Shown here in pieces: positions 48,757-50,412 of a stretch of DNA of 64,000 bases. The stretch comes from Elusimicrobiota bacterium (GTDB lineage Bacteria; Elusimicrobiota; Elusimicrobia; Elusimicrobiales; UBA9959): contig JAGVVD010000052.1 in NCBI GenBank assembly GCA_019135865.1, forward strand, positions 13,011 to 77,010. Reading direction: 5' to 3'. A model generated the notes under the pieces. It ran no database searches. It was not told the origin of the DNA and saw only the letters and a program-made list of their open reading frames with translations. Numbering within the stretch: the first letter of the stretch is position 1; each line of letters begins with the position of its first letter. Both the position numbers and the translations under genes were made by a program.

Positions 48757-50412
48757 ATGAAAAAGATCATTTTCTTCCTGCTGTGCTGCCCGCCCGCTTT
48801 CGCGTCGGCGGGCTACGATCTCAAATGGTGCGAGACCGAGGCGGTCCTGGACCGCGACGGCCGCGGACAGGTGGCCTACGCGCTGAGGATAGCCGTCTCC
48901 GGCATGGACTTCCACGGCTTCTATTTCGAGGGCGCGGCCGAACCGCCGCTCTTCGACCGCGCCGGCTCCTACGCCGTCGACGACGCCGGCAGGAGCTACC
49001 CCCTGGAGATAAAGCACGTCTCGGGCCGCAAGTACGACATAATACTGGCGGAAGGCCGCAGCTTCAATAACGGCGAGATCACCTACTTCTTCCGCTACGC
49101 CGCCGACTTCCAGGCCGCCGGCACGCTGACGCAGACCATGTCCGGCGAGCGCCGGCTGGCCGTGTTCAACTGGTCCCCCGTGCAGTGGGACGAGGCGCTG
49201 GAGCACATGACGGTGAAGGTGATATATCCCTCCCCGATGCTGCCCGGCGAAACGGGCGAAGCCGCGGCGTCCCGGCTCTCGTTCATGACCGAGAAGTTCG
49301 TCAACGAGCGTTACCTCATCGATCATCCCGAGACGGTCAACGGGGCCGGGGAGCGCCTGTTCACCGTGCGCTACCACAGGAAACCGGCGGGAAAGAAGTT
49401 CCATTTCCAGGTCCAGACCTACCTGGACGCCGCGGTCTTCGACCTGAAGACGATGGCCTCCTCCGGGCTGCTGGGCGGGACCCCGAAAGGCCCCTGGCGC
49501 CCCGCGCCGGAGAAGTATTACCTCAACCGCTTTTTCCCCGGCGGCGTGCTGGCCTCGGTCCCGGTCAGCCGCGGGGAAACGGCCTTCCTCGTCCTGCTTT
49601 TCTCGGTCTTCTTCGGGGTCCTGCCTTTCGTCGCGATGACGCGCAAGCACAACTCGATGCTGGTCGCGCAGGCCGGCATCTCGGAGGTGAACTGGGACGG
49701 CACCGAGTGGGAGCCGCCGAAAACGCAGGTCAGTTCTTTCCGCAAGCCCGGCAAGGTCGCGCGCGACCTCAGCCCGATAGAGGCCGGCGTCATACTGGGC
49801 CTGCCGCTGGCCGAGCTGGGCGCGCTGATCCTGGGGAACATGGAGCGCAAAGGGCTGGTCAAGGTGCTCGGCACGGACCCGCTGCGCGTGAGCAGGCCGC
49901 CGCATATCTACGCCAGCAACGACCCCTACGAGACGCTGCTGCTGGGAGGCATAAGGCCGGACGGCTCGGTGGACGAGGCCGCGCTCAGGGAGATGGTCAA
50001 GAGCATAACGGCCGGCATGGAGCAGAAGATCTGGGACGCCGACCTGGAGGCCACGAAGGCTTATTACAGGAAGAAGGCCGAGACTCCCGCCCCTGCCGGG
50101 GCCGATACCGACCACGGCTGGTACTGGGGGGGCTACCGCCGCCGGTTCCTGCGTATCGACGACAGGCGCTACGACGGTTCGGCCGCGCTGGGCGAAGGGC
50201 TCAAGGTCTCGATGGGCGAGGCCGGCTCCCTGAACTTCGAAAGCTTCAGGACCTCGCAGTCCTGCTACGAGGGAGCCTTCGCGCGCGACGCCTGCCACGA
50301 CGCCTGCCACTCGGCCTGCCATGACGCCTGTCACTCGGCCTGCCACAGCGCCTGCCACTCGGCGTGCCACGGCGCCTGCCACGGGGCCTGCGTCAGCGGC
50401 GGAGGCCACTGA
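48757..50412 (+). CDS. DUF2207-like single-pass membrane protein with a C-terminal (ACHx)8 Cys/His repeat; candidate radical SAM substrate
   Basis: Signal peptide [11 protein letters not shown]...ASA. Exported domain begins YDLKW...LDRDGRGQV. One TM ([18 protein letters not shown]), then DLSPIEAG, and the tail [41 protein letters not shown]. Alternative start 48718. Confidence 0.85.
   Translation: [551 protein letters not shown]
50290..50394 (+). repeat. 12-bp coding tandem repeat, GCC-TGC-CAC-NNN x8 plus GCC-TGC-GTC
   Basis: Read directly from the sequence. Units differ by synonymous changes (TGC/TGT, CAC/CAT, TCG/AGC, GCC/GCG, GGC/GGG). Confidence 0.95.

Follow-up and report, generated by a model that had tools for sequence, protein, structure and literature searches.

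What is the role of a tandem Ala-Cys-His-x (ACHx) repeat that ends a large membrane protein and stands immediately in front of a gene for a radical S-adenosylmethionine (SAM) enzyme? The question is raised by a three-gene locus in a 64,000-nucleotide (nt) stretch of Elusimicrobiota DNA (contig JAGVVD010000052.1; here the window), in which gene A encodes the 551-amino-acid (aa) membrane protein that bears the tail, gene B a radical-SAM/SPASM enzyme, and gene C a second membrane protein. This A-B-C system matches no curated family, and no paper on it was found; as judged from sequence, it most likely builds a cross-linked or metal-binding tail. The reading preferred here, with slightly better than even confidence, is that the tail of A is the substrate of B and is cross-linked by it. 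Literature searches on the tail sequence, the gene trio, DUF2207 together with radical SAM, Elusimicrobia together with SPASM, or Cxxx repeats returned nothing relevant.

The Repeat Tail and Its Conservation

Translation of positions 50218-50412 (+ strand) gives eight in-frame ACHx units (32 residues; 50290-50385, +), in which x is D, S, D, S, S, S, G, and G, followed directly by ACVSGGGH and a stop codon (terminal cap; 50386-50412, +). The interval 50281-50412, to which a sequence-only reading of the window had drawn attention, holds the repeats, three codons (A-R-D) in front of them, and the stop codon at 50412. Tandem Repeats Finder reports a period of 12 (8.8 copies, 73% matches) and a period of 24 (85% matches). 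The units are encoded by GCC (seven) and GCG (one), TGC (seven) and TGT (one), and CAC (seven) and CAT (one); the x codons are, in order, GAC, TCG, GAC, TCG, AGC, TCG, GGC, and GGG, with Ser specified by both TCG and AGC. Pairwise differences at the Ala, Cys, and His codons are synonymous in 21 cases and non-synonymous in none; they come from just three third-position changes, which makes the codon evidence for selection within the window thin.

The decisive evidence is comparative. Among 77 distinct tails of homologues, drawn from at least 10 phyla, the residues are unchanged despite a wide choice of codons (TGC 349 and TGT 225; CAC 296 and CAT 278; every one of the four Ala and six Ser codons). 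A block of 24 residues anchored on ACVS is 92% identical in 25 homologues, against a whole-protein mean of 37% identity. Because the residues stay fixed while all synonymous codons are used, selection acts on the protein, and the comparison shows strong purifying selection on the tail. The sequence-only reading had described eight ACHx units with synonymous divergence and an ACVSGGGH ending, and had ascribed them to protein-level selection and not to recent slippage; translation and the codon count confirm the description, and the retention of residues under varied codons, far beyond chance, bears out the explanation. That reading had also made its proposals depend on conservation among homologues, in which the tail proves to be nearly invariant.

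Every complete tail consists of two to 10 (A/V)-C-H-x units followed by A-C-V-S-(G/S)-G-(x)-(H/R/E/D), and the ending ACVS(S/G)G(x)(H/R/E/D) is found in 77 of 77 distinct tails. The number of units drifts over evolutionary time (mode seven to eight; P0010 and P0007 are examples of naturally short tails), and the x position follows the order S > D > G in frequency, with a gradient from D near the N-terminal side of the array to G in its final two units. A public genome record (L047, ~6600-6700) has a stretch of N masking part of the repeat. Immediately before the repeats lies a semi-conserved segment, FxxFRTSxxCY(E/D)G(A/P/C)F, with three variable residues after it (50236-50289, +; from the alignment and tails); this segment is a candidate "leader-like" site at which the tail may be recognized by the N-terminal domain of B.

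A Three-Gene Locus Conserved across Phyla

Gene B (50418-51776, +) begins 5 nt after the stop codon of A, and the start of gene C (51754-52779, +) overlaps the end of B by 23 nt. A word-indexed search finds 18 homologues of A, an exhaustive profile search finds 706 clusters at 50% identity, and a scan of one genome per species places the system in at least 235 genomes. Synteny was examined by tblastn in 80 loci that were kept, together with loci reached through B homologues: A, B, and C, found in 84, 79, and 78 loci, respectively, are adjacent and co-oriented in every sufficiently long locus, with a median of 11 nt between the stop codon of A and the start of B. The carriers are Elusimicrobiota, Omnitrophota, Planctomycetota, Acidobacteriota/Aminicenantes, Hydrogenedentota, Lentisphaerae, Kiritimatiellae, Verrucomicrobia, Armatimonadota, Nitrospiraceae, Firestonebacteria, Auribacterota, and Clostridia; among the last is a cultured carrier, Acetivibrio mesophilus N2K1. 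A tail-less distant relative (P0291), which has only the ectodomain in common with A, has no B or C downstream. Chance adjacency is ruled out because strict three-gene synteny spans phyla, and the connection that the sequence-only reading had drawn between the tail and the downstream radical-SAM enzyme is thereby upheld in ~80 loci.

Gene C encodes a 341-aa protein with four transmembrane (TM) helices and a cytoplasmic α/β domain, as supported by the open reading frame (ORF), the alignment, and an AlphaFold2 model (predicted local distance difference test score, pLDDT, 82). No Pfam or NCBIfam family matches it at E ≤ 0.01, and it has 54 homologues; Foldseek gives no hit below E 0.01, the best being a weak YbjN/Spa15 (type-III-chaperone-like) fold at E 0.02. 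The protein is 100% identical to one from an Elusimicrobiales metagenome-assembled genome. On the strength of the synteny, C belongs to the system as its third conserved gene and is probably an obligatory membrane partner.

ORF clustering in 85 loci revealed no fourth gene conserved beyond single lineages. Genes for ACT-domain, NifU/NifS, ABC-F, and B12-binding radical-SAM proteins were considered for this role and set aside as lineage-specific, and several clusters proved to be antisense ORF artefacts of GC-rich DNA. A scan of 48200-53200 for promoters and terminators found no promoter-like site on the + strand and terminator-like sites at chance level. The GGC GGA GGC codons of the cap contain GGAGG (50399-50403), ~14 nt before the ATG of B (50418), and the end of gene A may also serve as the ribosome-binding site of B; this role does not explain the conservation of the cap, because the A-B spacing varies from -7 to 478 nt across taxa.

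Architecture of the Tail-Bearing Protein

Gene A (48757-50412, +) is defined by the ORF list, its sequence, and its homologues; the longest ORF begins at 48718, but the homologues begin at the MKK... Met at 48757. The protein has a signal peptide (48757-48810, +), an extracytoplasmic β-sandwich domain (48811-49428, +; AlphaFold2 strands 32-237, pLDDT mostly >85), a single TM helix of 25 residues followed by basic residues (49573-49647, +; hydropathy scan, model helix 285-322), and a cytoplasmic winged-helix and helical domain with a Tyr/Trp/Gly/Arg-rich linker (49774-50250, +; model residues 353-511, pLDDT 74-90). The AlphaFold2 model, built with 12 sequences, has a mean pLDDT of 75, falls below 50 in the tail, and is numbered by the 564-residue reading of the ORF. 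Alignment reveals the conserved motifs PPK..FRKPGK, EQKxWDxD, and YYWGGY in the winged-helix/linker region. The linker before the tail (49900-50235; residues ~455-505 in the 564-residue numbering) abounds in Tyr, Trp, Gly, Arg, and His, as it also does in Omnitrophota; its composition rather than its sequence is conserved.

Hydropathy and the basic residues that follow the single TM helix place the C-terminal half of A, with the tail, in the cytoplasm. A second hydrophobic stretch, which as a TM helix would put the tail outside the cell, was rejected: distant homologues have charges there, and the model confidently makes it a winged helix. Likewise rejected was a 578-aa antisense ORF (48673-50409, -), since homology and codon evidence all favor the + strand; long ORFs antisense to genuine genes occur throughout the GC-rich window and its relatives, where they even yield "conserved clusters", and are artefacts.

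No Pfam or NCBIfam family matches A at E ≤ 0.01. Foldseek likens the β-sandwich to the N-terminal sandwich of M1 aminopeptidases and to an oligosaccharyltransferase (OST) subunit (E ~1e-7), matches of a generic β-sandwich kind only. Similarity to DUF2207 (PF09972) is sub-threshold: window A scores 12 bits (E 0.24) against a gathering score of 24.4, and in a relaxed scan eight of 13 A members show weak, likewise sub-threshold N-terminal similarity at E < 1 (best, 4.6e-4).

Gene B Encodes a Radical-SAM/SPASM Enzyme

The 452-aa product of gene B is recognized as a radical-SAM/SPASM enzyme by PF04055, invariant Cys residues, and profile matches in the PDB. The PF04055 match has an E-value of 1.2e-28 (100.8 bits; cut-off 29.5), and the alignment identifies C122, C126, C129, C133, C337, C351, C354, C369, C408, C411, C417, and C421 as invariant. 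With a CX3CX2C motif (residues 122-129; 50781-50804, +) and the core domain, B belongs to the radical-SAM superfamily; a GGE motif lies within an invariant PSVSFTGGEP. The eight invariant Cys of the SPASM region (residues 337-421; 51426-51680, +) are arranged as C337, C351, C354, and C369, then C408-x2-C411-x5-C417-x3-C421; this CX2CX5CX3C motif with upstream Cys, which in the SPASM subfamily serves two auxiliary [4Fe-4S] clusters, marks B as a SPASM protein. PF13186 is precomputed for most B homologues and is not among the matches of window B at E ≤ 0.01.

The N-terminal ~105 residues of B (50418-50732, +) appear to form a domain like the recognition element (RRE) of enzymes that modify RiPPs (peptides made on the ribosome and altered after translation). 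Residues 1-116 of window B have no Pfam match; PF05402 is matched at E ~0.1 in two homologues and is precomputed in five. The B profile aligns with the RRE-bearing TigE over residues 41-421, and TigE is the sole solved structure that aligns from the N-terminal domain on. The domain is described as RRE-like, and as PqqD-like at a sub-threshold level.

Among its best 25 NCBIfam families (AhbD, NirJ, GeoRSP, PqqE, StsB, WgkB, ACGX, HxsC, and MftC among them), B neither reaches nor approaches the cut-off of any curated maturase: the highest scores are AhbD 126.3 bits (cut-off 500), NirJ2 117, GeoRSP 115, and PqqE 102, mostly with coverage of the core. Against PDB sequences the B profile matches SkfB (2.8e-29), PqqE (3.3e-23), BlsE (5.2e-20), TigE (8VPO; 5.8e-20), SuiB (1e-19), GDGT-MAS (2.4e-19), CteB (3.3e-17), and anSME (1e-14); these nearest solved relatives are mostly peptide-modifying enzymes. 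Cyclopropyl synthases are defined by a Gly-Tyr-Trp motif, in which Tyr is a ligand to auxiliary cluster I (PMC10878394). Assignment of B to this class (TigE/TvgB type) was rejected, as an invariant F328-M329-W330-Y331 replaces the motif.

That the top two NCBIfam matches, AhbD and NirJ2, modify tetrapyrroles brings up a heme-like reading of the tail, in which the overlapping C-x3-C-H would be sites of covalent tetrapyrrole attachment and B would be a heme-handling enzyme; CHxACH can indeed be read as CX3CH, a rare variant of the heme c motif. This reading is very improbable: AhbD and NirJ2 (126 and 117 bits against a cut-off of 500) score no better than peptide maturases and match the core only, the tail is predicted to be cytoplasmic, no cytochrome c maturation genes are linked, and overlapping motifs cannot all be used.

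The Tail as a Proposed Substrate of B

The preferred reading, that B acts on the tail, is favored because B has an RRE-like domain, the repeat is C-terminal, a semi-conserved segment lies upstream of it, and enzymes of this family habitually act on short tandem motifs. Hydropathy and the model also put the tail in the cytoplasm, the compartment in which B works. The tail of A would be a dedicated substrate in cis; the RRE-like domain of B would dock on the FRTSxxCYEGxF segment, and the radical-SAM site would abstract one hydrogen atom per H-x-A-C unit and close a small ring. The outcome could be a cyclophane between His-C2 and Ala-Cβ, as HaaB makes on HAA, or a Cys-sulfur thioether of the sactipeptide or ranthipeptide type, in which case an auxiliary Fe-S cluster would receive the Cys thiolates. 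Some 8 rings would then form a rigid ladder on the inner face of the membrane, possibly able to bind metal, and C, the soluble parts of which are also predicted to be cytoplasmic, would be its obligatory membrane partner, acting as a scaffold or chaperone.

Several points weigh against this proposal. No characterized close homologue of A, B, or C was found. B lies below every curated maturase cut-off (126 bits against 500), and its top NCBIfam matches are enzymes for tetrapyrroles rather than for peptides; window B also falls short of the threshold for an RRE, and a membrane-anchored substrate of 551 residues is unusual for RRE-dependent maturases. No single cross-link explains the invariance of Ala, Cys, and His together, the Ala-His contingency described below is not phylogenetically independent, and the AlphaFold structure of the tail is not confident (pLDDT <50).

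Coupling of Alanine to Histidine and the Nature of the Proposed Cross-Link

The Ala position was analyzed in 104 distinct tails. It is occupied by Ala in 631 of 632 later units and in 104 of 104 cases before the terminal C-V. In the first unit the outcome depends on the residue at -2: where this is not His, the position holds Ala (49), Val (30), Met (1), or Phe (1), whereas tails with His at -2 (...V-H-S-A-C-H-D...) have Ala in 23 of 23. The two first-unit classes differ at Fisher p = 7e-5, for sequences that are not phylogenetically independent, and the pooled count is 758 of 759 wherever His stands at -2. Because Ala is invariant only with His at -2, Ala is tied to His at i, i+2, and the invariant block takes the form C-(H-x-A-C)n-V-S-G-G, which holds n His, n Ala, and n+1 Cys; the eight ACHx units of the window are one case of this block, as judged from translation, Tandem Repeats Finder, and the codon and position analyses. 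In distant members (P0200, P0203, and P0207, and a clade including L065 and L071), Tyr or Phe replaces His in units before the invariant block (A-C-Y-S, C-Y-E-G-C-F, A-C-Y-V); the ancestral unit may have been small-Cys-aromatic-x.

The coupling lends unexpected weight to the suggestion, made in the sequence-only reading, that His-x-Ala is a cross-linked motif. Every unit carries H-x-A, an aromatic-X-X motif of the kind that defines triceptide substrates. B could accordingly be a cyclophane synthase of the triceptide type that joins His-C2 to Ala-Cβ in each H-x-A, leaving Cys for binding of metal or of an auxiliary cluster; HaaB, a radical-SAM enzyme that makes this link on an HAA motif, is a direct precedent (PMC11499958), and the H-x-A spacing is absolutely conserved. 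No triceptide maturase is among the best 25 NCBIfam matches of B, however, the chemistry needs no invariant Cys, and the contingency test is confounded by shared ancestry; this variant of the proposal is rather unlikely.

The invariance of Cys suggests instead that B may be a thioether synthase of the sactipeptide or ranthipeptide type, one that would join the sulfur of each Cys to carbon in a neighboring residue, be it Ala at +3, His at either -3 or +1, or x at its Cα. The best solved relative of the B core is the sactisynthase SkfB, CteB is also matched, as is StsB in NCBIfam, and the only curated family that the tail touches is a Cxxx-repeat radical-SAM target; for repeated Cys thioethers, PapB is a precedent (PMC9413430). 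All the scores derive from the radical-SAM core in general and fall far short of the family cut-offs, and a thioether alone does not explain why Ala is invariant only with His: in the ...V-H-S-A-C... clade, Ala is present in 23 of 23 with His at -2, yet there is no Cys at -3. This variant is possible but doubtful.

Of the two radical-SAM chemistries named in the sequence-only reading, H-x-A cross-linking has thus gained support, but neither can be assigned by homology, as B lies below all curated sactipeptide, ranthipeptide, and other cut-offs. If the tail is modified, and with several bond types per tail allowed, a thioether may be expected with somewhat less than even confidence, a His-Ala cyclophane is plausible at a somewhat lower level, and another bond is slightly less likely again. 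The thioether is favored by the prior for Cys-rich SPASM substrates and the cyclophane by the positional coupling; both may occur, because no single link accounts for three invariant residues.

A Possible Unmodified Metal-Binding Tail

The extreme Cys/His content of the tail, at fixed spacing, also fits a reading in which nine Cys and eight His of an unmodified tail serve as ligands for Cu(I), Zn, Ni, or Fe-S clusters in a chain; B would then act on something else, or use or load the tail as a cluster or metal carrier. In HypB, SlyD, and UreE, His/Cys tails at the C-terminus bind Ni or Zn; genes for NifU-like (21 loci) and NifS-like (15 loci) proteins lie just downstream in Elusimicrobia loci, and the carriers are mostly from lineages presumed to be anaerobic. 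Known metal-binding tails, however, are biased in composition and loose in position, whereas here each A, C, and H position holds from phylum to phylum, and the non-ligand Ala is invariant only where it follows His. The NifU/NifS genes are limited to one lineage and absent from the window, and this reading leaves unexplained why 79 of 79 loci carry a dedicated radical-SAM enzyme with an RRE-like domain. Nor does a period of four give straight ligand stripes on an α-helix: the helix with one Cys stripe and one His stripe that the sequence-only reading had offered fails, as each unit advances 40 degrees on an ideal α-helix, or 320 degrees over nine Cys, in a tail for which pLDDT is <50. Metal or Fe-S binding by an unmodified tail is less likely but a serious rival, and it can be reconciled with a tail that is modified and also binds metal.

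Genes around the Locus

In the window, the divergent gene immediately upstream of A (48254-48703, -) codes for a double ACT-domain protein; it is found upstream in 28 Elusimicrobia loci and in no other phyla. Further upstream are genes for an ABC-F ATPase (43086-44786, +), a type IV pilin-like protein with an N-methylation motif (45403-45957, -), a free-standing tRNA_SAD editing-domain protein (45965-46405, +), and a GNAT-domain protein (46476-47495, -). An oligopeptide-type (Opp-type) ABC transporter, comprising a family 5 binding protein, two permeases, and ATPases (52905-58120, +), follows C at the place where other Elusimicrobia loci have NifU/NifS. In one Elusimicrobia lineage (L012-L030 and others), the NifU-like gene and that for a NifS-like cysteine desulfurase lie ~0.3-2.5 kb downstream of C on the same strand; this neighborhood could reflect lineage synteny or a link to Fe-S supply.

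On an Omnitrophota contig (L006/L007, 1-4333), the cassette follows a Bat-like operon (VWA, TPR, BatD, and TPR/SH3 proteins) with a 4-nt overlap, which suggests co-transcription with aerotolerance-type genes in that lineage. A B12-binding radical-SAM gene adjoins the cassette on the opposite strand in six loci labeled Omnitrophota or Planctomycetota (L003 4384-5976, -; L004 3353-4744, -; L037; L041; L043; and L045). The neighbors of the cassette in A. mesophilus, sugar-nucleotide enzymes and a GNAT, are uninformative.

Wider Significance

Much new peptide chemistry has come from radical-SAM/SPASM enzymes that act on short repeats. Because genome mining for SPASM substrates is usually directed at small precursor peptides, a 551-residue membrane protein with its core in the last 45 residues would be overlooked. 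The system extends over at least 235 species-level genomes, ~700 protein clusters, and more than 10 phyla, and its repeat is among the most strictly conserved short repeats for which there is evidence (92% against 37% identity). A and B form a defined candidate substrate-enzyme pair, for which a cultured host, A. mesophilus N2K1, exists.

A more far-reaching proposal, advanced tentatively and with much less than even confidence, is that A-B-C is a phylum-spanning system that builds a new structure, of ~8 His-Ala and/or Cys cross-links and possibly metals or Fe-S clusters, on the cytoplasmic tail of a receptor-like membrane protein rather than on a secreted peptide. The predicted layout (outer sandwich, one TM helix, inner winged helix, tail, and a partner with four TM helices) suggests, speculatively, a membrane-anchored signaling or sensing device. 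Because radical-SAM enzymes are oxygen-sensitive and the carriers are apparently mostly anaerobes, the modified tail could work as a switch, dependent on redox state, oxygen, or metal, that links the outer β-sandwich with the cell interior. If the tail is indeed cross-linked or metal-loaded, RiPP-type chemistry would be extended to housekeeping membrane proteins of little-studied, mostly uncultured lineages.

Comparison with Known Systems

Like A, the DUF2207 proteins (PF09972) combine a signal peptide with a β-sandwich ectodomain, a TM helix, and, on the cytoplasmic side, a winged-helix-like region with PP...L.P.EAG, but A scores below the Pfam threshold (12 against 24.4 bits). In typical DUF2207 proteins the chain ends with additional TM helices and a Gly-rich tail, and no link to radical-SAM genes is known.

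The tail itself comes nearest to two families of small radical-SAM targets, TIGR04117 (Syntroph_Cxxx, "Cys-Xaa-Xaa-Xaa repeat radical SAM target"; 11.7 bits, cut-off 50) and TIGR04118 (AC3_0185 Cys-rich RiPP; 7.0 bits, cut-off 35); two distant homologues score similarly, and the tail is a member of neither. A C-terminal Cys repeat of period four beside a radical-SAM/SPASM gene is common to these families and the A-B-C locus. The families, however, are small peptides (model lengths 98 and 46), whereas here H-x-A-C is carried by a 551-aa membrane protein accompanied by a third gene for a membrane protein. The same difference sets A apart from sactipeptides and ranthipeptides: Cys donors are present, yet their carrier has a signal peptide and TM helix, and the idea that the tail is a small precursor peptide was dropped, as it is the C-terminus of a full-length protein.

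With the HaaB/HaaA triceptide system, in which Ala is required at the third position, the locus shares the His-x-Ala spacing and a radical-SAM maturase, and its own Ala is invariant where His stands at -2; it differs in the extra invariant Cys of each unit, in having eight to ten tandem units, and in its membrane-protein substrate. PapB (freyrasin), SkfB, and CteB are, as proposed for B, SPASM or twitch enzymes that make Cys thioethers, and SkfB is the best PDB match of B, although the generic core alone aligns (residues 109-316) and no family cut-off is reached. In the PapA precursor, PapB acts at repeated Cys-X3-Asp motifs. Its thioether cross-links are to Asp/Glu (PMC9413430), whereas the tail has no conserved acidic acceptor, x being S, D, or G. 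TigE/TigB (PDB 8VPO) likewise pairs an RRE-radical-SAM-SPASM enzyme with a short tandem repeat, in this case TIGSVS (PMC10878394), but B has Phe-Met-Trp-Tyr for Gly-Tyr-Trp and the ACHx units hold no Val or Ile to cyclopropanate.

For action on a large protein, the parallels lie with other enzymes, whose similarity to B is only distant (anSME PDB match, 1e-14) and whose target motifs differ. anSME and QhpD are SPASM enzymes that act on Cys-containing motifs of full-size, folded proteins and not of secreted peptides, as proposed for B; these motifs are C/S-x-P/A-x-R for anSME, and QhpD links Cys to Asp/Glu in QhpC. A repeat-bearing SPASM substrate is thus known as a kind; what is unusual here is its place at the tail of a large membrane protein, together with an obligatory third membrane protein.

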